Source: an uncultured Bacilli bacterium (GTDB lineage: Bacteria > Bacillota_I > Bacilli_A > RF39 > UBA660). From it: a DNA stretch of 57,571 nt. Position 1 is the stretch's first letter, and the number at the start of each line of letters is the position of its first letter. The stretch lies in NCBI GenBank assembly GCA_910587745.1, contig CAJUNE010000003.1:1-57571 (forward strand). The letters run 5' to 3'. Below are positions 2,697 to 56,608 of this stretch, in pieces. Position numbers and translations under genes: made by a program. The notes under the pieces were generated by a model. It was not told the origin of the DNA, ran no database searches, and saw nothing but the letters and a program-made list of their open reading frames with translations.

Positions 2697-3656
2697 TTGA
2701 AAAAAACTAAATTAAAAATCAAAAAACAAGTATGGATTGCTTTAGTTCTTATTATTTTTGGTTGTATTGGTATTTATTCATTTAACAAAGTACGTGCTAA
2801 AATAGAATATAAAAAAACAAATGAATATAAACTTTTAAATATTGGATATACAAAAGAAGATATCAAATTACTTGAAGAAAAAACAAACAAAGATAGCATC
2901 AAAAATCTTTTAAATAGTCCAAAAAATGATTTTCTATTATCTTTACTTAAAGAACAATATTATTTAAATAAAAACTTATCAAGATATATAGCTTACAATA
3001 AAGAAAATCCTAGCATCTCTCCTAAGGAAGTTATTTCTTTGATAAATGTTAACCGAGACTATGCTTATTATGATCACGATATTGAAACTGATACTTCTCT
3101 AAATGAATTAATGCTAATTAATAAATATCATAAATTAAACGAAGACTTTGAACCTAATAATTTAACAAATGTAAGTAACAAATACTATTATGGTGATAAT
3201 CATAAACTTCAAAAAATTGCTTATGAAGCTTTTATAGATATGTGGAATCAAGCTAAAAATGAAGATATATATTTAATAATGAATTCTAGTTATCGTACCT
3301 ATGAATCTCAAGTAAATGTTTATGATTCTTATAAAAATCGTAATGGCACTACCTACGCTGATTCTATCGCTGCTCGCCCAGGACATTCTGAACATCAAAC
3401 CGGTTTGTCATTAGATATTTTTAGTAAAGATAACACAACAACTTCAAATTTCAAAAACTCTCCAGCTCATATATGGCTTCAAAACAATTCTTATAGATTT
3501 GGTTTTATTGAAAGATATCAAGAAGGCAAAGAGAATATAACTGGATTTAAAGAAGAAGCCTGGCACTATCGCTACGTTGGCATTGAAGCAGCAACTTACA
3601 TTCACGACAATAACATAACATTTGATGAATATTATGCTTACTTTATTGAAAAGTAA
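2697..3656 (+). CDS. D-alanyl-D-alanine carboxypeptidase, VanY/peptidase M15B family, membrane anchored
   Basis: Motifs SSYRTYESQ, HSEHQTGLSLD and EAWHYRYVG, plus an N-terminal TM segment. A TTG at 2697 sits 6 nt after AAGGTG; the track start at 2688 is the GTG inside that SD. Confidence 0.8.
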   Translation: MKKTKLKIKKQVWIALVLIIFGCIGIYSFNKVRAKIEYKKTNEYKLLNIGYTKEDIKLLEEKTNKDSIKNLLNSPKNDFLLSLLKEQYYLNKNLSRYIAYNKENPSISPKEVISLINVNRDYAYYDHDIETDTSLNELMLINKYHKLNEDFEPNNLTNVSNKYYYGDNHKLQKIAYEAFIDMWNQAKNEDIYLIMNSSYRTYESQVNVYDSYKNRNGTTYADSIAARPGHSEHQTGLSLDIFSKDNTTTSNFKNSPAHIWLQNNSYRFGFIERYQEGKENITGFKEEAWHYRYVGIEAATYIHDNNITFDEYYAYFIEK

Positions 3657-20193: not shown

Positions 20194-20688
20194 ATGATAA
20201 ACAAACAAAATCTTTGGTTTATAACCCTGTTTTCTCTCATCATGGTATTAAGTATTTATTATTTAACTATGTCTGAGGATACACTATCAACATTAAATGT
20301 AAACAATACAAATAATAATGGCACTGAAGTTGTCATAAGTGAAAATGAGACTTTAGTTGCTTTAAAAGTAGCAGATGAAGAAGCATTAGTATCAAAAATT
20401 GAAGAATTACAAAACGTATTATTAAATAATAGTTCTAGCTTAGAAGAAAAAAATCACGCTTACGACGAATTACAAGAAATAAACAAAAAAGAAAGTACAA
20501 AAGAAACAATAGTAAAGAAAATAAAAGACACTTATAAATTAGATTCATTTGTAAGTATTGAAGAAAATAACATTAAAATAACCATTGCATCTTCTAAGCA
20601 TGATACCAAATTAGCTAATAATATCATTAGAAGTGTCCAAGAACTTTTTAATGAAACCAAATACATAACTGTTAAATTTGGTAGTTAA
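20194..20688 (+). CDS. spoIIIAH: Stage III sporulation protein AH-like
   Basis: The N-terminus KQNLWFITLFSLIMVLSIYYL and the C-terminus IKITIASSKHD...ITVKF parallel B. subtilis SpoIIIAH (KQTVWLLTMLSLVVVLSVYYI ... INITVKSDKHS ... VAVTF). Confidence 0.65.
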   Translation: MINKQNLWFITLFSLIMVLSIYYLTMSEDTLSTLNVNNTNNNGTEVVISENETLVALKVADEEALVSKIEELQNVLLNNSSSLEEKNHAYDELQEINKKESTKETIVKKIKDTYKLDSFVSIEENNIKITIASSKHDTKLANNIIRSVQELFNETKYITVKFGS

Positions 20689-20759
20689 AATTTAACAAAA
20701 ATCATGTGTATCTCATAAAATACATTAGAATGGTATTAAAACAGAAAGGAAAGATACAC

Positions 20760-20966
20760 GTGAAAAGAAGCATTTTAACCAAAAGAGAACATGAAATATT
20801 CACACTTTTAGTTCAAGGCTTATCTACAAAAGAAATATCAAAAAAAATAAAAATAAGTGAAAAAACTGTACGAAATCACATATCAAATACTATGCAAAAA
20901 TTAGAAGTAAAAGGACGTGCTAATGCCGTAGTAGAATTATTAAAGTTAGGTGAAATTTCGTTTTAA
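20760..20966 (+). CDS. gerE: LuxR-type sporulation regulator GerE
   Basis: LTKREHEIFTLLVQGLSTKEISKKIKISEKTVRNHISNTMQKLEVKGRANAVVELLKLGEI is near-collinear with B. subtilis GerE. A GTG at 20760 follows AAAGGAAAG; the track start at 20706 is probably too far upstream. Confidence 0.8.
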   Translation: MKRSILTKREHEIFTLLVQGLSTKEISKKIKISEKTVRNHISNTMQKLEVKGRANAVVELLKLGEISF

Positions 20967-20968
20967 AT

Positions 20969-20991
20969 AAATCTCCAAATGGAGATTTTTT
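20969..20991 (+). terminator. Intrinsic terminator after gerE
   Basis: AAATCTCC-aaat-GGAGATTT followed by a T-run. Confidence 0.7.
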
Positions 20992-21039
20992 AATTCTAAA
21001 ATATTTTTTTAAAACATATTAATTTATTAAGGTGATATT

Positions 21040-21981
21040 ATGCTTAAAAAAAGCGCATTAAGAAGAATACTAACTGCTACTCTAGCTTTAATAATTGCAA
21101 GTATTTTATATTTTTTTCCTAACAATAACACTTTATACAATATCAAACAAAACACTAATTATATAGATATTAATAAAACTCCTATATATTTATTAAATAA
21201 AGAAAATTATCTTATCAGAACCTCTATAGTATCTAGCGATAAAGATGAAATAAATCAAATCAAATATCTCATTTCAAGTTTAACCATCGATAGTGAAAAC
21301 AATGAAAATTTGCCTAAAAATTTTAATCCTATAATTCCTAAAAACACTAAAATTTTATCTTTATCATTAGAAAACAACCTATTAAAAATTAATTTTTCTA
21401 AAGAATTTCTAAATGTTAACAAGGATCAAGAAGAAAAGCTTATTGAAAGTATAATTTACACATTAACTGAAAATAAGAATATCAAAGAGATAATGATTTT
21501 TATTGAAGAAAAAAAACTAGAATACTTACCACAAACAAATATAAAACTGCCAAACACATTAACAAGAGATTTTGGTATAAATAAAATATATGATTTAACA
21601 AATATTAAAAATATATCTAAAACAACAATTTATTATATTGGAAAAGAAGAAGATTTAGTATATTATATCCCTGTTACTAAAATAGATAATAATCAAAATA
21701 ATAAAATTGAAATAATTATTGAAGAATTAAAAAGTTCCCCCACTTATGAAACAAATCTTTTAAGTTATTTAGCATCTTCAGTAAAACTATTAAATTATGA
21801 AACTTTAGAAAACACTATTAACTTAACTTTCAACAATGAAATATTCTCTGATTTTAATAATAACAATATATTAGAAGAAGTAAAATACTCTATTTCATTA
21901 TCTTTAAAAGATTCACTACATGTAGAAGAAGTAAACTTCTTAGTTGATGGAAAAGTTATTAGTACATTTAAAGGAAATTAA
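21040..21981 (+). CDS. GerM-like sporulation/germination protein (two GerMN-like repeats), membrane anchored
   Basis: An N-terminal signal anchor, then two repeats each containing a tL.lnFskef-type segment (LLKINFSKEFLN; INLTFNNEIFSD). The call also rests on its context with gerE and spoIIIAH. Confidence 0.45.
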   Translation: MLKKSALRRILTATLALIIASILYFFPNNNTLYNIKQNTNYIDINKTPIYLLNKENYLIRTSIVSSDKDEINQIKYLISSLTIDSENNENLPKNFNPIIPKNTKILSLSLENNLLKINFSKEFLNVNKDQEEKLIESIIYTLTENKNIKEIMIFIEEKKLEYLPQTNIKLPNTLTRDFGINKIYDLTNIKNISKTTIYYIGKEEDLVYYIPVTKIDNNQNNKIEIIIEELKSSPTYETNLLSYLASSVKLLNYETLENTINLTFNNEIFSDFNNNNILEEVKYSISLSLKDSLHVEEVNFLVDGKVISTFKGN

Positions 21982-36258: not shown

Positions 36259-37044
36259 TTAAGCCAAATGAGGTGCATATCTTTCAATGCTAAATTTTCT
36301 ACATTCAGTTTCTAAACGTTCAAAATAGTAATCCAAATCAATTTTCTTTTCTCTGATTAACTTTAATTCTGCTGTATCTAAAAGTTTAGCAGTATCATTA
36401 GCTCTTATAAAACCATTTAAGTAAATAGCCCAATTTTCCTCAGTGGCTCGAAAAAAGCCATTAATACCTAAATCCATAAAAAAATCTTCATTTCCAAAAC
36501 TAGCTGGACTCATAAAATTTTCTTTAAAATGGTAAATTACTTCTGGAATAAAGCGCGGAACTATTAAAAATTGTCTAAAAGTAGGATCAATGACATAGGC
36601 ATTACCATTAAAGATAGCAACAGCAAAAAAATGTGGAACTAGCTGAAGGCCTAAATTCTTAGTATGGATAATCATTACTTTTATACCCAAACTCTTACAT
36701 ATTTGATATACCATTATAGCTGCATATTTGCACAAATTCAAGCATGGATTTAAGTTAGTATACTCTATAAACCCACGTTCAAATAATTCATTATAAACTT
36801 CATTAACAATGTCACTAAATATAGGAATATTTATACTAAATAATGAATTTAAATCCCAATTAAAAACCCTCTTTTTCATAATACTGTTATCAAATTGTAA
36901 CCATAATATTCTTTTATCAATTTTAGATAATTCTTTTTCCTTTAAAAACAATTTAAGCCATAGTAATCTTATTCTTTCTCTCGCATTAACATCATTACAA
37001 TCAATATTTCCAATATCATTTATTATATCTTGAATTTCATTCAT
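36259..37044 (-). CDS. Hypothetical protein, possible transglutaminase-like cysteine peptidase fold
   Basis: A candidate Cys...His...Asp arrangement (NPCLNLCKYAA; VPHFFAV; YVIDPT). An AAAGGGGGA SD precedes the ATG at 37044. The assignment is weak. Confidence 0.35.
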   Translation of the reverse strand: MNEIQDIINDIGNIDCNDVNARERIRLLWLKLFLKEKELSKIDKRILWLQFDNSIMKKRVFNWDLNSLFSINIPIFSDIVNEVYNELFERGFIEYTNLNPCLNLCKYAAIMVYQICKSLGIKVMIIHTKNLGLQLVPHFFAVAIFNGNAYVIDPTFRQFLIVPRFIPEVIYHFKENFMSPASFGNEDFFMDLGINGFFRATEENWAIYLNGFIRANDTAKLLDTAELKLIREKKIDLDYYFERLETECRKFSIERYAPHLA

Positions 37045-37088
37045 ATTAAATCCCCCTTTCATAAAAAATAAAAGACTCTATAAGAGCC

Positions 37089-38569: not shown

Positions 38570-39598
38570 CTAAAAACCTCTTTTTCTAGTTAAAAAGACA
38601 GTATCTTCTTCTCTGGCTTTAATATTAAAAATTTCTAAATCAAAAGCGCTATTTAAAGACCTATAAATCATTCCGTAAATATCTGAAGAAGTTAATCCAG
38701 CACTATTTTTTATTCCAAATTCCCCACTTAAATTATCTAAAGTATGGCAAAACCAATAATCAAATACCATTACACCATTATGATTTAGATTAATTTCAAA
38801 TATCTTCTTTAATCTATCTATAACTAATGCAAATTGATTAGAATCACTATTACATAAAATTTGAAAAATAAAAAGTAAAATATTTGTAATATCAATATAA
38901 TCATATTTTATTTCTGAGTGATCTTCCAAATATTCTAGAGCATCACCAAAAACAATATTTATTGAAGCCTTTTCTATTTTTTCTCTTATAGCATAATAAC
39001 CTTTCTTACTACTCAAATAAGTTATTAATGATTTATTTACTTTTAAATCATAATCAATCGCTTTAAAAAGATGATGCATTAAATCCTCTTTTGGATTTTT
39101 TGTCAATAAGATATCCCACGCATTAATATCAGCTTCATCATTTAAAGCTGGTTTCACACTTTTAAAAACATCATAAGACAAAAATTTATGACTATTACTA
39201 TCTAATAAAAAACGCTCATAATCAATCGCCGATAAAGTTTTAAAAGCAGCCAATCTTAATCTAAAAAATAATATTTGCAAATCATTATTTTCTAAAGCAG
39301 TTATATTTTTTATATCACGAGATAATAATTCAAGTAAAGTATCTCCTGTGCCTAAAATAATAAAGGCATTATTTACATCACTAGGTAAAGTTCTTTCTAA
39401 ATAATGTTGATTTTGTGTAGTAAAAATAAATGGTTTATCAATATAAACATCTGAATCTATCCCATCTCTGTTTATAACATTCTGTGCCTTAAAAAGAATA
39501 TCGGCACCCGGCATACTTTTAGGATAAACGCCAATACTATCTTTAAACATTCCAAATAGTCTATTCATCATTATTGGATCCATATAATCATTCCTCAT
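38570..39598 (-). CDS. DUF3419/BtaA-like SAM-binding-fold protein
   Basis: IILGTGDTLLELLS...ALENNDLQILFFRLRLAAFKTLSAIDYERFL resembles the DUF3419 pattern. This is a family call from memory. Confidence 0.4.
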   Translation of the reverse strand: MRNDYMDPIMMNRLFGMFKDSIGVYPKSMPGADILFKAQNVINRDGIDSDVYIDKPFIFTTQNQHYLERTLPSDVNNAFIILGTGDTLLELLSRDIKNITALENNDLQILFFRLRLAAFKTLSAIDYERFLLDSNSHKFLSYDVFKSVKPALNDEADINAWDILLTKNPKEDLMHHLFKAIDYDLKVNKSLITYLSSKKGYYAIREKIEKASINIVFGDALEYLEDHSEIKYDYIDITNILLFIFQILCNSDSNQFALVIDRLKKIFEINLNHNGVMVFDYWFCHTLDNLSGEFGIKNSAGLTSSDIYGMIYRSLNSAFDLEIFNIKAREEDTVFLTRKRGF

Positions 39599-40993: not shown

Positions 40994-41182
40994 TTAAGAG
41001 TTTTCACTATAATCAACTATATCAATATGATAATCTTGAAGTTTAATTTTAATATCATTTTTAAGAGTATTTAAAAACTTTTGTTTATAGGTATTTACCA
41101 TTAAAGTAGTAAGCATCATCAAGATAAAAACTACAAAGAAAGAATAAACCATATACATCGAAGCAAACCCTCTCTTTTTCAA
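40994..41182 (-). CDS. Small single-TM protein downstream of the peptide genes (candidate immunity protein; N-terminus is pseudopilin/ComGG-like)
   Basis: (M)KKRGFASMYMVYSFFVVFILMMLTTLMVNTY... A TTG at 41182 lies 8 nt after AAAGGAG; the track start at 41191 abuts the SD. Confidence 0.45.
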   Translation of the reverse strand: MKKRGFASMYMVYSFFVVFILMMLTTLMVNTYKQKFLNTLKNDIKIKLQDYHIDIVDYSENS

Positions 41183-41214
41183 AACTATCAACTCCTTTTA
41201 AAATTATAACAAAA

Positions 41215-41236
41215 AAGAGTTTAATTTAAAACCCTT
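41215..41236 (-). terminator. Intrinsic terminator after the third peptide gene
   Basis: The minus strand forms AAGGGTTT-taaatt-AAACTCTT (8 bp, one G-U) followed by TTTTTTG. Confidence 0.55.
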
Positions 41237-41245
41237 TTTCATTTA

Positions 41246-41398
41246 TTAGCAATAATTTTTAGTTTTACCTCTACGAAGCGTAGAACCAATCTTTCTTCCA
41301 AAATCAAAGATTGTTTTAAAAGCAGAGATAACAGCATTTACAAGCGCTGCACTTACTCCACCATAAATTTTTTGAAGTTCTATATTATCTAATTTCAT
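41246..41398 (-). CDS. Double-glycine-leader peptide 3 (50 aa)
   Basis: My translation is MKLDNIELQKIYGG|VSAALVNAVISAFKTIFDFGRKIGSTLRRGKTKNYC. The ATG overlaps the stop of peptide 2 (TAATG). Confidence 0.75.
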   Translation of the reverse strand: MKLDNIELQKIYGGVSAALVNAVISAFKTIFDFGRKIGSTLRRGKTKNYC

Positions 41399-41541
41399 TA
41401 GCACTTCTCCGGATGAAAATAGCCATAAACAACTGCGCTAATAAAAGTTAATCCAGCTGCAATTCCAAGTCCTAAAAACTTCAGAACAGTCCATCCTCCT
41501 CCTGTAATATTAGATAATTCATTAATACTAATATTTCTCAT
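41398..41541 (-). CDS. Double-glycine-leader peptide 2 (47 aa)
   Basis: My translation is MRNISINELSNITGG|GWTVLKFLGLGIAAGLTFISAVVYGYFHPEKC. The ATG overlaps the stop of peptide 1 (TAATG). Confidence 0.8.
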   Translation of the reverse strand: MRNISINELSNITGGGWTVLKFLGLGIAAGLTFISAVVYGYFHPEKC

Positions 41542-41672
41542 TATTTAATACCTCCAAAAACAACTTTAAATTTTTTTATAACATTAACCATGCTAATAAA
41601 TAAACTTGTAAAAGTAGTAACTATATTGCCACCACCACAAGCTATTAATTCATTTTTATTTAATTTTCCCAT
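41541..41672 (-). CDS. Double-glycine-leader peptide 1 (43 aa)
   Basis: My translation is MGKLNKNELIACGG(G)|NIVTTFTSLFISMVNVIKKFKVVFGGIK. It starts 17 nt downstream of the accessory gene stop. Confidence 0.7.
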   Translation of the reverse strand: MGKLNKNELIACGGGNIVTTFTSLFISMVNVIKKFKVVFGGIK

Positions 41673-41689
41673 TCTATCTACATCCTTTC

Positions 41690-42100
41690 TTAAAAAACTG
41701 AATTAATAATTTTCTTTAATAATCTTTGTTTATTATAGCAAAAATTAAGCTCAACAATTTCTTTATCTTCCAAACCATAAGTATTAGCAAAATTATATAA
41801 ATAATAACTAATTACATTTTTTTCATCTATCTCTATAGTTTTAGATAAAATATTAGGCTTTATATACTTATTGTTAAATTTAATTTTTTGAATATCTATA
41901 TTTGTAGGAATAGCCACAATTATTCTGCAATCTTCACTACAATTCACATATCCTCGAGTCAAATAGTGATCATAAACTTCTACATTTAAAGATATAACTA
42001 AAATAACTAATAAAAGAAAAATAAACATAATTGAAACAAGAAATAAATTTTTAGGTTTTTTTCTTAAAAATGCTTGTTTATTCTGAAATAAGTTTTCCAT
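41690..42100 (-). CDS. Small single-pass membrane protein, putative bacteriocin export accessory (or immunity) protein
   Basis: An N-terminal cytoplasmic basic stretch, one TM segment (LFLVSIMFIFLLLVILVISL) and a ~90-aa extracytoplasmic domain. It overlaps the ABC gene by 23 nt. Confidence 0.5.
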   Translation of the reverse strand: MENLFQNKQAFLRKKPKNLFLVSIMFIFLLLVILVISLNVEVYDHYLTRGYVNCSEDCRIIVAIPTNIDIQKIKFNNKYIKPNILSKTIEIDEKNVISYYLYNFANTYGLEDKEIVELNFCYNKQRLLKKIINSVF

Positions 42101-44144
42101 TTAACTCACCCATATCTAAAATCTGTGTAAACTTACTACTCACGTCTTTATGAGAAACATAAATAAGTGTACTGGTAGGATAATATTTTTTAATATCTTC
42201 TATAATATCTAACTCTAAATCAAAATTCACTTCACTCAAAGCTTCGTCTAAAATGAGTATTTTCGCTGATTTTAAAAGACCTCTAGCAAGTATTATTCTT
42301 TGTAGTTCTCCACCGCTTAAATTATTTTGCATTGCATTAATAATTGATTCATATCTATTAGGTCTTTTCTCCACTATAGATTCTATTCTACAAACTTCCA
42401 CTACTTTTTTAAAATCTTCATCTTTAACTTTTCGAAAACAAAGAATGTTATCTCTAATTGTTCCTGTAATAAGTTTTTCATTTTGACCCACATAAAGTAT
42501 ATTTTTTAAAGTAGTGCCTAAACTATAATCTGCCTCATTTATTCCCCCGATTTTTATTGTCCCATTAATATCTTTAGGATAAGCAAGCATATTACATATA
42601 GTACTTTTACCACTGCCACTTGGGCCCTTTAGAAAAACTTTATCACCCGCATCAATTTTAAAATTTACATTCTTTAAGATATCCGTAGTATTATATTTAA
42701 AAGAAACATCTATAAATTCAATACTATAACTATCCAATGTTTTAATACCTGTTTCATAATTATCACATTCAATATTTATAAATTCTGACAATTTACTAAA
42801 AGTTGCTTTTAAATAATTAAACTTTGGTATTAAATCTATACAATCTTGAATAGGATTAATAAAATAAAACATTAAGCTTTGAAAAGTAATAAGTGAAAGA
42901 AGCTCTAGTTTACCATCTGCAATCATCAAAATACCAATACTAATAACTAAAAAAGTTCCCATTTCATAAATAAATTCTTTAATAAAAGAGACGTTATTTA
43001 AAGTAGACTGCGTTTTAAAATTACTTTTAAACATTATAATTAATTTCTCTTCTAAATATTTTAAAAAATGATTAACTAAATTCAAGTTTTTTATACTAGT
43101 ATTTGCTTCAATATTCTCAACTAAACTAGAATTAAAAGTAGTCGTTGTATTAACATTATCTCTAACACACCTATAAATAAGTTTACTAAATAGAAGTCCT
43201 AAAATTACATAAATAAAAACTATCAAACAAAGCATAAAAAATAATTTACTATTTATGGAATATAAAACCACTACTGCTCCTATTACCAAAACCGTATTTA
43301 AAAGAACATTAGTAAAGAAATCTGCTAATAATTCTTTTATTTCGCTTAGATCTTGTATTCTAGATACAATTTCTCCCGTGCTACGATTTTGTATAAATTT
43401 TAAAGGAAGATTAAATATGTGAGATAAAAAATTCGAAAATAGTTCTACATCAAGATTACGATAAAAATAAGTAAGATAATAATTTTTAATAAAATTCAAG
43501 AAAACTTTAAAAAAGAAAGTTAGTGCGAATATAATTATTATAGCTTTCAAATATATATTATCTTCCCCATGATTAATCGCAGAAACTGCAATTTGAAAAT
43601 AAAAACTTGTTAAAATTGTAAAAAACATTACAATTAGATTAATAATACAGATTTTTATAAAAACAGATTTATTCTTTATAATTAATTTCATTAACAAAGA
43701 GGAAATTGTTAAGTCTTTATCATATTTTAAAATTTTATCTATAGGTGTTAATAGAATTAAAATATTATCCCAAATATTATTAAAATCTTCCATTTTCATT
43801 TTTATTTTTCCTACAGCTGGATCCATAAGCCACACATAATTTTTAGATATCTTATAAACAACCACAAAGTGATTTAATCCGTTTTTAAGAACCACATGTG
43901 CTATAGCAGGCAAATAGATATTTCTATTTTTTACATCGTCCACAAAAACCCCCATTGCCTCAAAACCATAACTTTTAGCAGTCTCTACTAAATTATAGGC
44001 AGTTGTTCCAACTCCAGTTGTAAAAGTATCATCTCTTATTTTTTCAATAGGAACATATCCATCATAATATTTAATAATACATGCCAAACTACAAGCTCCA
44101 CAATCTTTCAAATCATGTTGTTTTACAACTTCAATTTTAGCCAC
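42078..44144 (-). CDS. Bacteriocin-processing ABC transporter with N-terminal C39 peptidase domain
   Basis: QHDLKDCGACSLACIIKYY (catalytic Cys), HFVVVYKI (His), 6 TM segments, and GPSGSGKST / LSGGELQRI / ILILDEA. A GTG start follows AAGGGAGAG by 7 nt. Confidence 0.9.
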   Translation of the reverse strand: MAKIEVVKQHDLKDCGACSLACIIKYYDGYVPIEKIRDDTFTTGVGTTAYNLVETAKSYGFEAMGVFVDDVKNRNIYLPAIAHVVLKNGLNHFVVVYKISKNYVWLMDPAVGKIKMKMEDFNNIWDNILILLTPIDKILKYDKDLTISSLLMKLIIKNKSVFIKICIINLIVMFFTILTSFYFQIAVSAINHGEDNIYLKAIIIIFALTFFFKVFLNFIKNYYLTYFYRNLDVELFSNFLSHIFNLPLKFIQNRSTGEIVSRIQDLSEIKELLADFFTNVLLNTVLVIGAVVVLYSINSKLFFMLCLIVFIYVILGLLFSKLIYRCVRDNVNTTTTFNSSLVENIEANTSIKNLNLVNHFLKYLEEKLIIMFKSNFKTQSTLNNVSFIKEFIYEMGTFLVISIGILMIADGKLELLSLITFQSLMFYFINPIQDCIDLIPKFNYLKATFSKLSEFINIECDNYETGIKTLDSYSIEFIDVSFKYNTTDILKNVNFKIDAGDKVFLKGPSGSGKSTICNMLAYPKDINGTIKIGGINEADYSLGTTLKNILYVGQNEKLITGTIRDNILCFRKVKDEDFKKVVEVCRIESIVEKRPNRYESIINAMQNNLSGGELQRIILARGLLKSAKILILDEALSEVNFDLELDIIEDIKKYYPTSTLIYVSHKDVSSKFTQILDMGELNGKLISE

Positions 44145-44302
44145 AAATTTTCTCTCCCTTCAAGTAAAGTTAAACCATATTTTTACGCTTTTTTCCAGCA
44201 TTTTTACGATTTAGGGTAAGATTTGAGTTATCCACGACAATACTCGACAAACACCGACAAAGCTATATGCTAATATATCAAACCAAAGAAAGGAGAAATT
44301 TT

Positions 44303-44755
44303 ATGCAAAATGGAATTAATTTAGCAAAATTAAGAAGTAAAAATAATCAAACTATAAATGATATATCAAAAATTTTAAATGTTTCATTGTCATCTTATAA
44401 GTTATATGAAACAGGCACTATTCCTATGTCTTTAGAAGAAATAAATACTTTAAGTATATTCTATGATGTATCATTTGATTATTTATTAGGGTTAAGTAAT
44501 GTAACCAAAAGAGATCATTTTCGTAAAACAATTGATTATAAATATTTGAAATTTTCTATCAAATACTTAAGAAAAGTAAACAAAATTAATCAAAAAAATT
44601 TTGCTAAAGAATTAAACTATTCTATAAGTTCTGTTAGTAGGTTTGAACATAATGGAAAAACGGTAAGTTTAGATTATTTAATAAAAATAGCCAGAAAATT
44701 TAACATATCAACTGATTATTTATGTGGTAAAAGTTATATAAAAACTATATTATAG
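44303..44755 (+). CDS. Tandem XRE-type HTH transcriptional regulator (two Cro/C1 domains)
   Basis: Two HTH_3-like repeats (INLAKLRSKNNQTINDISKILNVSLSSYKLYETG and IKYLRKVNKINQKNFAKELNYSISSVSRFEHNG). An AAAGGAGAAA SD precedes the ATG at 44303. Confidence 0.8.
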   Translation: MQNGINLAKLRSKNNQTINDISKILNVSLSSYKLYETGTIPMSLEEINTLSIFYDVSFDYLLGLSNVTKRDHFRKTIDYKYLKFSIKYLRKVNKINQKNFAKELNYSISSVSRFEHNGKTVSLDYLIKIARKFNISTDYLCGKSYIKTIL

Positions 44756-53061: not shown

Positions 53062-54495
53062 ATGGAAAATAAAATCGTCAAAAGAATCCAAGAAGAATTC
53101 AAAAAAAATCCTGATTTAACTACTAAAAAAATAAAATTATCTCTACTTGATACTGTATATGTAATTTATTTAGAAACTATTAGTTCCAGTGATAAAGTAA
53201 ATGATTATATCTTAAAAAATTTAAGTAATTTAAGTGGCTTAAAAAGTAAAAAAATAAGAAACTTAGATTCTATATTACCCGGTCCTAATACCAAAGAAAT
53301 TAAAAACTATGATGAGATAGAATTTTACATAACTAATGGATTTACTATTGTAGTAAGAAATAATACGATTCTTGCCATTGAAACCAAAGCTGATATTAAT
53401 CGAAGTGTTGCTGAACCTAATAGTGAACCAGCTACTAATGGACCCAAAGACGCTTTTACAGAAAATTATCAAATTAATTTAGGTTTAATAAAAAGAAGAA
53501 TTAAATCTCATACTTTAAAAACTGATGAGTATATTGTTGGACGTAAAACAAGCACTAAAGTTGGCGTTTTATATTTTGATGATATTGCAGATTTAGAACA
53601 AGTTGAATTAATCAAAAAGAAAATATCTAAAATAGATATTGATGGCATAATTGATACAGCTTCTTTAGGTCAATTAATAACAGATGAATTTATTACCCAC
53701 TTTCCTACTTATATGATGACAGAAAGACCCGATAATGTTTCTCGTGCCCTACTTGAAGGTAAAATTGCTATTACAGTTGATACTTCACCTTATGTTATAA
53801 TACTACCCGCCTTTCTAGCAGACTTTATTAATCCAGGAGTAGATCAGTATAATAAAAACAAAAATGTTAACTTTATTAAAATACTTCGCTTTGTTTGTTT
53901 CTTTTTATCAATGATAGCGCCTGCCGTTTATATTGCTCTTACAAATTATAATCAAGAAACTATTCCAACAGACCTTTTAGTTAGTTTTGCTGTTCAAAGA
54001 GATGGTGTCCCCTTTCCGGCAATAGTTGAAGCTTTTATGATGCTCTTTATATGTGAGATGTTACGAGAAAGTGACCTTAGATTCCCTAACTCGTATGGTA
54101 GTGCCATTTCTATTTTAGGTGCTTTAGTCTTAGGAGATGCAGCTGTTTCTGCAGGAATAGTTAGTCAAATTATGATTATAGTTATTGCTCTAACATTTAT
54201 ATCCAGTTTAATATTTACTGAAGTAGAACTAGTAAGTGCCTTAAGACATTTAAGATTTATCTTTCTAATTTTAGCATCATTCTATGGCATTATGGGTATA
54301 GTCTTTGGTTTATTCTATTTTCTTATTAGAATTAATGATACTTACTCCTTTGGTAAACCTTACTTCTATCCGATTGTTCCTTTTGATAAAACATACATCT
54401 TTAAAACTTTACTTAAATCTCGTGCTAAAAAAGATACTAAACGTAGTAAATTGCTTACTAAGAAAAACTTTACAAGACAAGGAGAAAACGCATGA
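53062..54495 (+). CDS. Spore germination protein, GerA/GerKA family (A subunit)
   Basis: GerA-family length and architecture, with a C-terminal TM bundle and the ...EMLRESDLRFPN... region. It is the first gene of an A-C-B operon. Confidence 0.85.
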   Translation: MENKIVKRIQEEFKKNPDLTTKKIKLSLLDTVYVIYLETISSSDKVNDYILKNLSNLSGLKSKKIRNLDSILPGPNTKEIKNYDEIEFYITNGFTIVVRNNTILAIETKADINRSVAEPNSEPATNGPKDAFTENYQINLGLIKRRIKSHTLKTDEYIVGRKTSTKVGVLYFDDIADLEQVELIKKKISKIDIDGIIDTASLGQLITDEFITHFPTYMMTERPDNVSRALLEGKIAITVDTSPYVIILPAFLADFINPGVDQYNKNKNVNFIKILRFVCFFLSMIAPAVYIALTNYNQETIPTDLLVSFAVQRDGVPFPAIVEAFMMLFICEMLRESDLRFPNSYGSAISILGALVLGDAAVSAGIVSQIMIIVIALTFISSLIFTEVELVSALRHLRFIFLILASFYGIMGIVFGLFYFLIRINDTYSFGKPYFYPIVPFDKTYIFKTLLKSRAKKDTKRSKLLTKKNFTRQGENA

Positions 54496-55580
54496 AGAAA
54501 CTATTAATATTATTAATTATTCCTTTCATTTTAAGTGGCTGTTATGACTATAATGAGCTTAATGATTTAGCTATCGTCTCAGGTATTGGTATTGATTATG
54601 AAAATGAAGAATATATAGTTACTTATGAAATATTAAGTACTAAAAAAGAAGGAGAAACCTCAGCCTCCTCTAGTACTTATAACGTTACAAGTCGTGGTAA
54701 AACAGTAGTTGAAGCTTTTAGTAATAATGGTAATTTAATGGATAAAGTACCCTACTTTGAACATGTAGATGTAGTTGTTATAAGTGAAGATATAGCTAAA
54801 AACAATTTAAAAGAAGTTGGCGAATATATTATTAGAACATCTAAACTTCGAAACGAAAGTTTTCTAGCTATTGCTACTAATTCCAGTGCTAAAGATGTTA
54901 TAGAAGCTAAAACCAAGGAAAAACCTGTTGCCTCAAGTTTTATAATGAATTTACTCGAAAATAATAAAAATAGTGCTAGTGCTGGTTACTTTATGCCATA
55001 TACAGAAATATTAAATAGTATTCTAACAAATGGTGAAGATGCTATTTTATCAGCAGTTACTGTAAAAAAAAATGGTGAAGAAAAAAATATTGAATTAGTA
55101 GGTCTAGGTGTCTTTGAAGATTTTAAATTAAAACATATTTTTGATACCAAGGAAGCAGCCATTTTAAATGTCTTAAATAATTTTGATGCTGAAACAGTAT
55201 TCTTTGAAAAGAAATGTAACAATGGTGTTATAGTAGTATCCATTTATGAATCAAGTATCAAAATAGAACCTAATAATGAAAATGTTAAAATAAGCGGCAA
55301 ATTAAATGTTCGAATTAATGAGGACACTTGTAATGATAATTTAAGAGATGAAAAAGTCTATGAAAAACTCCAAAAAGAATTTACTAAAATAGTTGAAGAT
55401 AAAATGCTTAATGTTTTAGAAACTCTTCAAACAGAAAAATCAAATGCTCTTAAAATTGGTAAATCTTATTATGATAAATATCGTAAACCAGAATACAAAT
55501 TATGGACTAACCAAAGATTTGTCTTCGATTTAGATTTAAAAATAAATAAGAAAGGATTAATATTTGAGGTGAAAAAATGA
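54492..55580 (+). CDS. Spore germination lipoprotein, Ger(x)C family
   Basis: Lipobox LSGC followed by YDYNELNDLAIVSGIGIDY. It overlaps the A gene by ATGA. Confidence 0.85.
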   Translation: MKKLLILLIIPFILSGCYDYNELNDLAIVSGIGIDYENEEYIVTYEILSTKKEGETSASSSTYNVTSRGKTVVEAFSNNGNLMDKVPYFEHVDVVVISEDIAKNNLKEVGEYIIRTSKLRNESFLAIATNSSAKDVIEAKTKEKPVASSFIMNLLENNKNSASAGYFMPYTEILNSILTNGEDAILSAVTVKKNGEEKNIELVGLGVFEDFKLKHIFDTKEAAILNVLNNFDAETVFFEKKCNNGVIVVSIYESSIKIEPNNENVKISGKLNVRINEDTCNDNLRDEKVYEKLQKEFTKIVEDKMLNVLETLQTEKSNALKIGKSYYDKYRKPEYKLWTNQRFVFDLDLKINKKGLIFEVKK

Positions 55581-56608
55581 AAGAAAAACCATTTATCATA
55601 TATTTTTTAACCCAAAGTTTATTCTTAGGTTTTGGTATCTCTATTTTATTTAGTATTTCCAGTAAAGATTGTTATATAGGAGCTCTTTTAGGATTATTAA
55701 TTGGTTTTGTTATAATCTACTTATATTCTAAATTTTTAGAATTAAAAAAGAAAAGAACTCTTAAAGAAATACTAAAACAAAATAAAATTCTCGGCATATT
55801 TGTTTATCTTCTAATTATTATAGCTTCTTATATTTTACTAATCTATTCTCTAGTTATATATAAAGTATTCGTAGCTAGTTTTATGTTAATTAAAACCCCA
55901 GAAATTCTTCTACTCATACCTATTGTTATATTTGGAACTTATGGTGCATTTAAAGGATTAACAGTTATAAATCGTGTAGCAGAATCCTTAATACCTCTAG
56001 CTTTAGGTTTAGCAGCCTTTGCTTTTCTAGGGGTTGTTGGTTTATTTGACACATCTAATTTTCTTCCAATTTTAACTACTACTCCATCTAACTTTTTTAA
56101 AACAGCCATAACTTTCGCTGGCATAAGTACATTTCCTAATTTACTTACTATTCATTATCAAGAAAAACCAAAATATATGCTAACTACTTATTCCCTAACT
56201 TGTTTACTGATAATCGGTACTATCATTTATATAAATGGTATTCTAGGCGAAGAACTAGTTCACATCTATCGTTTCCCAGAATATATGGTTTTAAAACAAT
56301 TAAAACTATTCCAATTTATTGAAAAAGTTGAAAACATTTTATCAATCGCATGGATATTTAACATTTTTATTCTTTTAATGACATCTATTCATTCAATTAA
56401 AGAATTATTGCCTAATAAAAAACCTAAAATAATAACAGTCATAATTCTAATATTAACCTTATATATGATAGACAAAGTATTCGCTTTTAATTATGTTAAT
56501 GAACTTCGTATTTATAAATTATTACCATATATAAGTATAATTATTCCTTTAATAATTATTATACCTTTATTATATTTAGCTAAAAAAAAGAAAAGTAATC
56601 ATAACTAG
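55577..56608 (+). CDS. Spore germination permease, GerAB/GerKB family (B subunit)
   Basis: A ~10-TM APC-like protein that overlaps the C gene by ATGA. Confidence 0.8.
   Translation: MKEKPFIIYFLTQSLFLGFGISILFSISSKDCYIGALLGLLIGFVIIYLYSKFLELKKKRTLKEILKQNKILGIFVYLLIIIASYILLIYSLVIYKVFVASFMLIKTPEILLLIPIVIFGTYGAFKGLTVINRVAESLIPLALGLAAFAFLGVVGLFDTSNFLPILTTTPSNFFKTAITFAGISTFPNLLTIHYQEKPKYMLTTYSLTCLLIIGTIIYINGILGEELVHIYRFPEYMVLKQLKLFQFIEKVENILSIAWIFNIFILLMTSIHSIKELLPNKKPKIITVIILILTLYMIDKVFAFNYVNELRIYKLLPYISIIIPLIIIIPLLYLAKKKKSNHN

Follow-up and report, generated by a model that had tools for sequence, protein, structure and literature searches.

A conserved chromosomal cassette of uncultured gut Bacilli with three tightly coupled genes for predicted double-glycine-leader peptides

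The 57,571-nucleotide stretch of DNA analysed here (hereafter, the window) is contig CAJUNE010000003.1 from assembly GCA_910587745.1 of an uncultured Bacilli bacterium with a G+C content of 26%. Its minus strand carries a compact cassette with genes for a peptidase-containing ATP-binding cassette (ABC) transporter (PCAT), an accessory membrane protein and three short peptides, the last of which are the principal subject of this report. The peptide genes were delineated from a listing of open reading frames (ORFs) of at least 30 amino acids and from a direct reading of the minus strand between positions 41100 and 41800. The precursor of peptide 1 (41541–41672, minus strand) has 43 amino acids, comprising the leader MGKLNKNELIACGGG and the mature part NIVTTFTSLFISMVNVIKKFKVVFGGIK; that of peptide 2 (41398–41541, minus strand) has 47, comprising MRNISINELSNITGG and GWTVLKFLGLGIAAGLTFISAVVYGYFHPEKC; and that of peptide 3 (41246–41398, minus strand) has 50, comprising MKLDNIELQKIYGG and VSAALVNAVISAFKTIFDFGRKIGSTLRRGKTKNYC. 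The full translations are MGKLNKNELIACGGGNIVTTFTSLFISMVNVIKKFKVVFGGIK, MRNISINELSNITGGGWTVLKFLGLGIAAGLTFISAVVYGYFHPEKC and MKLDNIELQKIYGGVSAALVNAVISAFKTIFDFGRKIGSTLRRGKTKNYC, respectively. Against the sequence and the ORF list, the coordinates and translations agree exactly with those given for three small minus-strand ORFs in a first-pass annotation of the window. The same annotation described the genes as unannotated, which holds for its own ORF track only: public protein collections already contain each of the three sequences, letter for letter, as a predicted protein on about 60 contigs, and a variant of peptide 2 (MCI9280736.1) bears the public name 'bacteriocin [Bacilli bacterium]' at NCBI. 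The public 90%-identity cluster of the 43-residue peptide 1 also holds unrelated proteins of 431 and 425 amino acids (P0004 and P0007), evidently a clustering artefact.

All three precursors begin with a leader of the double-glycine type, as had been proposed from a first inspection of the sequence. Each has Gly-Gly at positions -2 and -1, Glu-Leu at -8 and -7 and hydrophobic residues at -4 and -12, within the expected leader length of roughly 14–30 residues. For peptide 1 the pattern itself stood, and the processing site was corrected to the Gly-Gly at residues 14–15, with the mature part starting at N16, because orthologues read C-x-G-G followed directly by N or G. Position -4 of double-glycine leaders is normally Ile, Leu or Val; in peptide 1 it is Cys12 (41637–41639, minus strand), and this cysteine is found in nearly all orthologues, with a tyrosine in one locus (L016). 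Among 37 sequences from the three peptide families, the only invariant residues are the initiator Met, Glu(-8), Leu(-7), Gly(-2) and Gly(-1). Elsewhere in the leaders residues vary freely, and orthologues of peptides 2 and 3 hardly differ in their mature parts. When ORFs of up to 90 amino acids from the six-frame translation of the window were searched with the leader pattern as a regular expression, these three were the sole matches; simulated windows from a first-order Markov model (200 replicates) gave 0.015 matches on average and never as many as three. The curated leader model TIGR01847 (bacteriocin_sig) scores peptide 2 at 16.6 bits, above its cut-off of 15.7, and reported no match for peptides 1 and 3; 8 of the 37 family members match it at E <= 0.1. 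Cleavage of all three precursors after Gly-Gly (behind G15, G15 and G14, respectively) by the C39 peptidase domain of the neighbouring exporter would be consistent with these features.

The three genes are arranged head to tail with TAATG overlaps of stop and start codons, an arrangement recognized at the outset and present at both junctions, where one base is shared in each case (41541 and 41398). Peptide 1 is preceded by the Shine-Dalgarno sequence AAAGGA. For peptide 2 the corresponding element, GGAGG, is formed by the C-terminal Phe-Gly-Gly codons of peptide 1 (41546–41560, minus strand), and for peptide 3 a GGAG lies within the Pro-Glu codons of peptide 2 (41403–41414, minus strand). The close spacing is conserved: in all 12 loci examined, neighbouring peptide genes meet at -1, 0 or +1 nucleotides, and at these loci the ribosome-binding site of the next gene usually falls within the last codons of the preceding one. 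Since those codons carry the ribosome-binding site of the next gene, the conservation of the C-terminal residues of peptides 1 and 2 may in part reflect a second constraint that does not act on the protein. At distant loci the site likewise lies in the preceding gene, within Arg-Gly codons (AGAGG). Two distant loci have no recognizable ribosome-binding site before peptide 3, and there its translation would depend on reinitiation.

Twenty-six related loci were collected, and all keep the same cassette at the same chromosomal place. The contigs occur in gut samples of mouse and human origin, SRR27976893 and SRR14167430 among them. Peptide reading frames, lengths, start codons, ribosome-binding sites and the leader motif are kept throughout, except that peptide 1 of one locus (L014) has 40 codons. 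Loss of the frames in relatives had been named beforehand as an outcome that would count against the genes; the frames are intact in all 26. Five of the loci (L012–L016; 26–30% G+C) are metagenomic and were recovered by a metagenome scan with a subset of the 38-sequence alignment of the accessory protein, a scan with close accessory sequences having given no matches; they retain the cassette at an accessory protein identity of only 40–45%. Very A+T-rich genomes abound in short ORFs, and frames of 43–50 codons could in principle be chance openings or decayed, unexpressed remnants. This explanation is effectively refuted by the conservation just described, together with the three leader motifs against the 0.015 expected and an excess of synonymous over non-synonymous change in the genes for peptides 2 and 3.

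That excess is large. Nei-Gojobori counts over six loci gave ratios of non-synonymous to synonymous change (pN/pS) of 0.20 for the mature part and 0.77 for the leader of peptide 2, and of 0.13 and 0.37 for those of peptide 3. The mature parts of both are under purifying selection. The values for peptide 1 are 0.74 (mature) and 0.92 (leader), and its mature part can hardly be aligned between close and distant loci. As its 43 codons recur in 25 of 26 loci and the leader is kept, peptide 1 is a real gene, though a far less constrained and fast-evolving one.

From computed properties, mature peptide 1 has 28 residues and a net charge of about +4, with a hydrophobic N-terminal half and a cationic tail. 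Mature peptide 2 (32 residues) has a charge of about +1 and is very hydrophobic, with a single cysteine at its C-terminal end. Mature peptide 3 (36 residues) has a charge of about +6 and an amphipathic helical character with a hydrophobic moment of 0.77, and it too carries a single C-terminal cysteine. The calculated average masses in the reduced state are 3131.8, 3459.1 and 3933.6 Da for peptides 1, 2 and 3, and a disulfide-joined dimer of peptides 2 and 3 would have 7390.7 Da. The earlier descriptions of peptides 1 and 3 as cationic and of GxxxG-type motifs in peptide 2 are upheld, the latter comprising GLGIA, GIAAG and AVVYG. Peptide 3 contains the small-xxx-small motifs ALVNA, AVISA and GRKIG, and motifs of this kind are present in all three mature peptides. 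An AlphaFold2 model of the peptide 3 precursor consists of one helix spanning residues 5–47, with a predicted local distance difference test score (pLDDT) of 78.7. The mature parts of the three peptides are unrelated to one another; the 16–31% identity between families (alignment A8) derives mostly from the leaders.

The cysteines of peptides 2 and 3 follow a common pattern. Each mature peptide has exactly one, at the C-terminus or within three residues of it; both are present in the window and in 23 related loci, both are missing from two (L013 and L015), and neither ever occurs singly. In the two cysteine-less loci, peptide 2 ends in YPKEN or NPKES and peptide 3 in QRLIK. The joint presence and absence of the cysteines, the similarly strong constraint and the small-xxx-small motifs suggest that peptides 2 and 3 function as a pair, perhaps one joined by an intermolecular disulfide. 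No example of a disulfide-linked two-peptide bacteriocin turned up in a literature search, and to our knowledge none has been described.

The initial proposal was that all three peptides together form one multi-peptide bacteriocin. In its strict form, this would make them obligate subunits, supplied in equal amounts through coupled translation and active only in combination. The genes do always occur together, never change their order and abut to within one nucleotide (-1, 0 or +1) in every locus examined, and all three products carry predicted cleavable double-glycine leaders and small-xxx-small motifs. Tandem coupled genes are, however, common for independent bacteriocins as well, and the evidence for partnership links peptides 2 and 3 only: the co-variation of cysteines does not extend to peptide 1, whose mature part, with a pN/pS of 0.74 against 0.13–0.20, evolves several times faster and is hardly alignable across loci. 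The multi-peptide bacteriocins that the literature search returned (garvicin KS, aureocin A70 and the cereucins) resemble the present set in having three or four small cationic or hydrophobic peptides with tandem genes and a presumed joint action. They differ in being leaderless, similar to one another and served by another kind of exporter, whereas the peptides described here have predicted cleavable leaders and unrelated mature parts. An obligate three-peptide bacteriocin is thus possible, although we do not favour it and consider it unlikely.

The exporter gene (42078–44144, minus strand) encodes 688 amino acids from a GTG start codon (44142–44144); the aligned position is ATG in L002, L003 and L011. 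That a C39-peptidase ABC exporter lies upstream in the same operon had been noted early on, and the assignment is sustained by Pfam matches above cut-off for Peptidase_C39 (PF03412, 120 bits against a cut-off of 22), ABC_membrane (PF00664, 112 bits) and ABC_tran (PF00005, 83.5 bits). The closest relatives of solved structure, aligned over the full length, are PCAT1 (PDB code: 4RY2; E = 4e-92) and ComA. Because the catalytic residues, namely the Cys of DCG, the His of NHFVV and the Asp of MDP, coincide with those of PCAT1, the peptidase domain is of the active type and not a degenerate, HlyB-type C39-like domain. The order of C39 peptidase, six-helix membrane domain and ATPase is shared with PCAT1 from Clostridium thermocellum, ComA from Streptococcus and transporters of the LagD/LcnC type. 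Every curated NCBIfam exporter model scored below its cut-off (TIGR01193, 353 against 524 bits; TIGR03796, 334 against 853; NF045998, 320.9 against 500), so that by its domains the protein has PCAT architecture and falls into no curated subfamily. Such an exporter would be expected to cleave the leaders after Gly-Gly and to export the peptides.

Between the exporter and peptide 1 lies the gene for the accessory protein (41690–42100, minus strand; 136 amino acids), which overlaps the exporter gene by 23 nucleotides and ends 17 nucleotides before peptide 1. The protein has a short N-terminal helix, one transmembrane helix and a beta-rich outer domain with a conserved C-x3-C motif, and an AlphaFold2 model (pLDDT 88.8) shows a helix, the transmembrane helix, a seven-strand beta domain and a further helix. 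In this it departs from the usual accessory proteins, which are of the HlyD/LcnD/ComB type or of the thioredoxin-like PedC type; accessory proteins of the former type have about 450 residues, whereas the present partner is a 136-residue single-pass protein. An exhaustive HMMER search of 1.84 billion proteins returned only 44 representatives related to it, nearly all of the full-length ones about 115–146 amino acids long. The family shares an N-terminal NK-x-x-FL-x-x-KP, the transmembrane helix, the mostly conserved C-x3-C and a C-terminal FYYNKQRII. Eight of 38 accessory relatives match NF045999 (MAG1140_fam), with a best E of 1.3e-6. The window copy reaches 16.7 bits against a cut-off of 35, in an alignment that spans the whole model (residues 13–133 to model positions 3–126).

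This repeated, remote match is of interest in view of the exporter, for which the third-best NCBIfam match is NF045998, the family of Mycoplasma Mbov_0121. MAG1140 is paired with Mbov_0121 in Mycoplasma and is similar to the accessory protein in size and layout. Both window proteins score well below the respective cut-offs (320.9 of 500 and 16.7 of 35 bits), as relatives and not members of these families would, and the exporter and accessory protein look like a distant cousin of the uncharacterized Mycoplasma pair. In the literature search Mbov_0121 was found only as a table entry. When the accessory model was compared with the PDB using Foldseek, nothing was returned below E = 0.06, and the idea of a miniature membrane-fusion protein was set aside, the matches to the beta-barrels of ZneB, CusB, MexA and MacA being too weak (TM-score about 0.3). 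A role of the C-x3-C motif in forming a disulfide in the peptides was also considered. It is weakened by the retention of the motif in L013 and L015, where the peptides lack cysteines, and by its loss in some other family members.

Downstream of peptide 3, a hairpin resembling an intrinsic terminator, with an A-tract, stem and U-tract, is found at 41208–41243 (minus strand; -11.9 kcal/mol, z = -5.8). In L004, L012 and L013 a comparable hairpin lies after peptide 3; the one in the window was missed by a consensus terminator scan because its stem is poor in G+C. By this terminator-like element, the operon of exporter, accessory protein and peptides would end here. The next gene (40994–41182, minus strand) encodes a single-pass membrane protein of 62 amino acids that starts MKKRGFASMYMVYSFF and is initiated at TTG. 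It has its own predicted extended -10 promoter, TGTTATAAT, with the TG element, at 41203–41230, and is followed by rpsU and yqeY. A gene of about this size lies 3' of peptide 3 in every locus that is long enough, in L007 with a 176-codon gene in between. The protein matches no Pfam or NCBIfam family. It is the best candidate for a putative immunity protein. Its K-K-(R)-G-F start appears pilin-like by eye, and a ComGG-type pilin was considered and dismissed: Pfam and NCBIfam gave no support, and no comG genes were seen by eye in the window. The additional gene, of about 176 codons and without a family, stands between peptide 3 and the gene for the 62-residue membrane protein in L007 (3056–3586) and L010 (1020–1349), and in L008 it is split into pieces of 92 and 74 codons (3056–3334 and 3361–3585) in a manner resembling a frameshift.

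At the other end of the cassette, a divergent gene (44303–44755, plus strand) encodes a regulator of 150 amino acids with two XRE-type helix-turn-helix (HTH) domains, each matched by Pfam HTH_3. A mechanical ORF from 44267 would give 162 amino acids; the 150-residue form is the one predicted on this contig in public data. All loci that extend to this region contain the gene. The region between regulator and exporter contains three direct TTGTCG repeats with an exact spacing of 10 nucleotides (44235–44260, minus strand), a pattern that is unique in the window, with an expectation of 0. Its core, TGTCG-N5-TGTCGYGGA, recurs at the same place in 10 related loci (for example L002 768–786, L003 3287–3305 and L011 2146–2164, as well as L019–L026), and the repeats are probably the operator of the two-HTH regulator.

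An alternative to a toxin is a pheromone secreted through the PCAT, in the manner of ComC or BlpC; one or more of the peptides could act in this way, peptide 1 most plausibly. Both peptide 1 (51–98% identity to the window copy) and the regulator (62–78%) diverge fast, as is the case in pherotype systems, and the conserved operator-like repeats suggest regulated expression. There are also weak matches to the BlpC, ComC and VP1 pheromone models, but these lie far below the cut-offs and involve the leader only. Unlike ComC/BlpC systems, neither the cassette nor its conserved flanks contain a histidine kinase or response regulator; there is also no peptide-binding regulator of the RRNPP type in the cassette, the sole regulator being the 150-residue two-HTH protein. 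Hydrophobic or cationic mature peptides of 28–36 residues, moreover, resemble pore formers. A pheromone function is, on balance, distinctly unlikely.

With respect to characterized bacteriocins, the greatest similarity is to class IIb, as represented by the lactobin A/cerein 7B family (TIGR03949), lactococcin G and plantaricins EF and JK. In common with these, the cassette has adjacent, coupled genes for unmodified double-glycine-leader peptides with mature parts of 28–36 residues, which are hydrophobic or cationic and carry GxxxG, AxxxA or SxxxS motifs, and it includes a C39-peptidase ABC transporter. The genes for peptides 2 and 3 are neighbours in a single operon, and both products contain GxxxG-like motifs. 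It is unlike class IIb in that three peptides are coupled where those systems have two, and in that the peptide genes stand behind the exporter in a single operon. The C-terminal cysteines kept or lost jointly in peptides 2 and 3, the absence of an immunity gene from the operon and the core-genome location are further differences.

Scores with the curated models are modest. For TIGR03949 (cut-off 21.5 bits), peptide 2 of the window scores 18.2 and peptide 3 scores 14.7 bits, both below the cut-off, and orthologues of peptide 2 score above it in L013 (26.3 bits) and L014 (22.7 bits). Twenty of the 37 family members match this model at E <= 0.1; matches to lactococcin G-beta number 14 and those to Pfam Bacteriocin_IIc 12. 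The first-pass view that the mature sequences correspond to no described bacteriocin was confirmed in Pfam, NCBIfam, the PDB sequences and a literature search. In a comparison of the mature peptides with all PDB sequences, peptides 1 and 3 had no match, and a match of peptide 2 to designed 'Pizza' repeat proteins was discarded as spurious, with no single stretch passing. The literature search found no paper that prints these peptide sequences and, on PCATs or bacteriocins in Tenericutes and Erysipelotrichaceae, nothing relevant. Remote homologues of each peptide were sought among 5.8 billion proteins; about 14 clusters per peptide were obtained, all from the same clade and none named or characterized. 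In a plasmid collection, both the accessory protein and peptide 3 were without a match.

The chromosomal setting of the cassette is as constant as its content. In every locus that is long enough, the order is regulator, exporter, the gene for the 136-residue accessory protein, peptides 1, 2 and 3, the membrane protein of about 62–69 residues, rpsU, yqeY, infC, rpmI and rplT. The cassette is fixed between a gene for an AI-2E-family transporter and rpsU in 10 of 10 contexts with an identical RpsU and also in distant relatives, and is a syntenic feature of the clade. Relative to the window copy, the exporter has 69–98% identity and the accessory protein 53–88%, against 82–100% for neighbouring housekeeping proteins; the cassette proteins diverge faster than their neighbours.

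A fixed, syntenic place in the core genome would be explained if the peptides were exported, membrane-active molecules with a lineage-specific function that does not consist in killing competitors, such as one in sporulation, sibling killing, or interaction with the envelope or a host. Such a role would fit the same housekeeping position being held across the clade while the accessory protein diverges to 40% identity, the strong purifying selection on mature peptides 2 (0.20) and 3 (0.13), and an accessory protein whose distant kin is the Mycoplasma MAG1140 family and not the usual bacteriocin accessories. Nothing positive, however, favours any particular alternative of this sort. The leaders, the PCAT, a GxxxG peptide with a cationic partner and a small membrane protein nearby are all features of class II bacteriocins, and the cassette proteins outpace their housekeeping neighbours in divergence, as accessory and competition genes do. 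We consider a non-killing role improbable and give it little credence.

The interpretation that we favour, with moderate confidence, is that the locus is a chromosomal secretion operon of the class II, double-glycine-leader bacteriocin type, in which peptides 2 and 3 would form a class IIb-like pair and peptide 1 would be a third exported peptide. Under this scheme, the XRE regulator, acting on the TTGTCG repeats, probably controls one transcript running from about 44144 to 41208 that would encode the exporter, the accessory protein and the three precursors, with coupled translation linking their amounts. The C39 domain would cut after Gly-Gly, and the transporter, helped by the accessory protein, would expel mature peptides of 28, 32 and 36 residues. 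Peptide 2 would correspond to the hydrophobic, GxxxG-bearing helices of the lactobin A/cerein 7B type, and peptide 3 would be a strongly cationic amphipathic helix. The two would most likely insert together into target membranes as a two-peptide, class IIb-like permeabilizing bacteriocin, possibly joined through their cysteines. Peptide 1 could serve as a further subunit, as a bacteriocin in its own right or as a signal, and the separately transcribed 62-residue membrane protein would protect the producer. What the analysis establishes directly are the genes and their order, the leaders, the domains and catalytic residues of the exporter, conservation and selection; cleavage, export, killing activity, the partnership of peptides 2 and 3 and immunity are inferred.

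Several observations weigh against the favoured interpretation. Bacteriocin loci are usually variable between strains, and fixation at one housekeeping position of a core genome is atypical for them. Peptide 2 of the window stays below the cut-offs of both TIGR03949 and Bacteriocin_IIc, none of the curated bacteriocin models in Pfam and NCBIfam is passed by peptide 1 or 3, and the weak family similarity that is seen derives largely from the leaders. A dedicated immunity gene is not found within the operon, since the hairpin follows peptide 3 and the 62-codon gene has a separate promoter; the candidate thus lies outside the operon and matches no family. The two loci in which both cysteines are missing are close relatives, so that their joint loss was probably a single evolutionary event. 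The C-x3-C motif of the accessory protein is not tied to the peptide cysteines, as it is retained in the lineage where peptides 2 and 3 have none.

A more elaborate scheme could also be conceived, in which peptides 2 and 3 form a disulfide-linked heterodimeric bacteriocin, peptide 1 is a strain-specific signal or specificity factor, and the cassette with its MAG1140-like accessory protein has been passed down vertically as a core trait and is no mobile weapon. Taken as a whole, this scheme is tentative and unlikely to hold in all its parts.

Elsewhere in the window, two genes vary between close relatives within an otherwise syntenic housekeeping block. One (38570–39598, minus strand) encodes 342 amino acids with a weak DUF3419 match and is absent in L004, L017, L018 and L022. 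The other (36259–37062, minus strand) encodes 267 amino acids with a faint match to a papain-like toxin domain, in the place of which L017, L018 and L022 have a gene for 349 amino acids on the opposite strand. By eye, three consecutive genes at 53062–56608 (plus strand), including one for a lipoprotein with an L-S-G-C lipobox, resemble what we take to be a spore germination receptor operon of the GerA type, and other ORFs in the window, including that at 20194–21981, are presumably sporulation-like as well. If so, the host would be a spore former, though related records say 'Tenericutes bacterium'.

Systems in which a PCAT serves class II peptides with double-glycine leaders are already known, the genes had been predicted publicly, and one variant of peptide 2 had been named 'bacteriocin'; the general picture of class II bacteriocin biology is unchanged. 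What is new are the mature sequences, the layout of three coupled genes behind the exporter, the MAG1140-like miniature accessory protein and the paired terminal cysteines. If the peptides are active, this clade of uncultured gut Bacilli with very A+T-rich genomes, listed in public records as 'Bacilli bacterium' or 'Tenericutes bacterium', would gain its first described bacteriocin, and two or three mature peptide sequences without characterized relatives would be added. The paired C-terminal cysteines offer a simple idea of how the halves of a two-peptide bacteriocin might find and hold each other, and the accessory protein could reveal what the exporter and accessory pairs of Mycoplasma do. 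Given that the cassette is so strictly conserved in the core genome, one may ask whether peptides of this kind are always weapons between strains.

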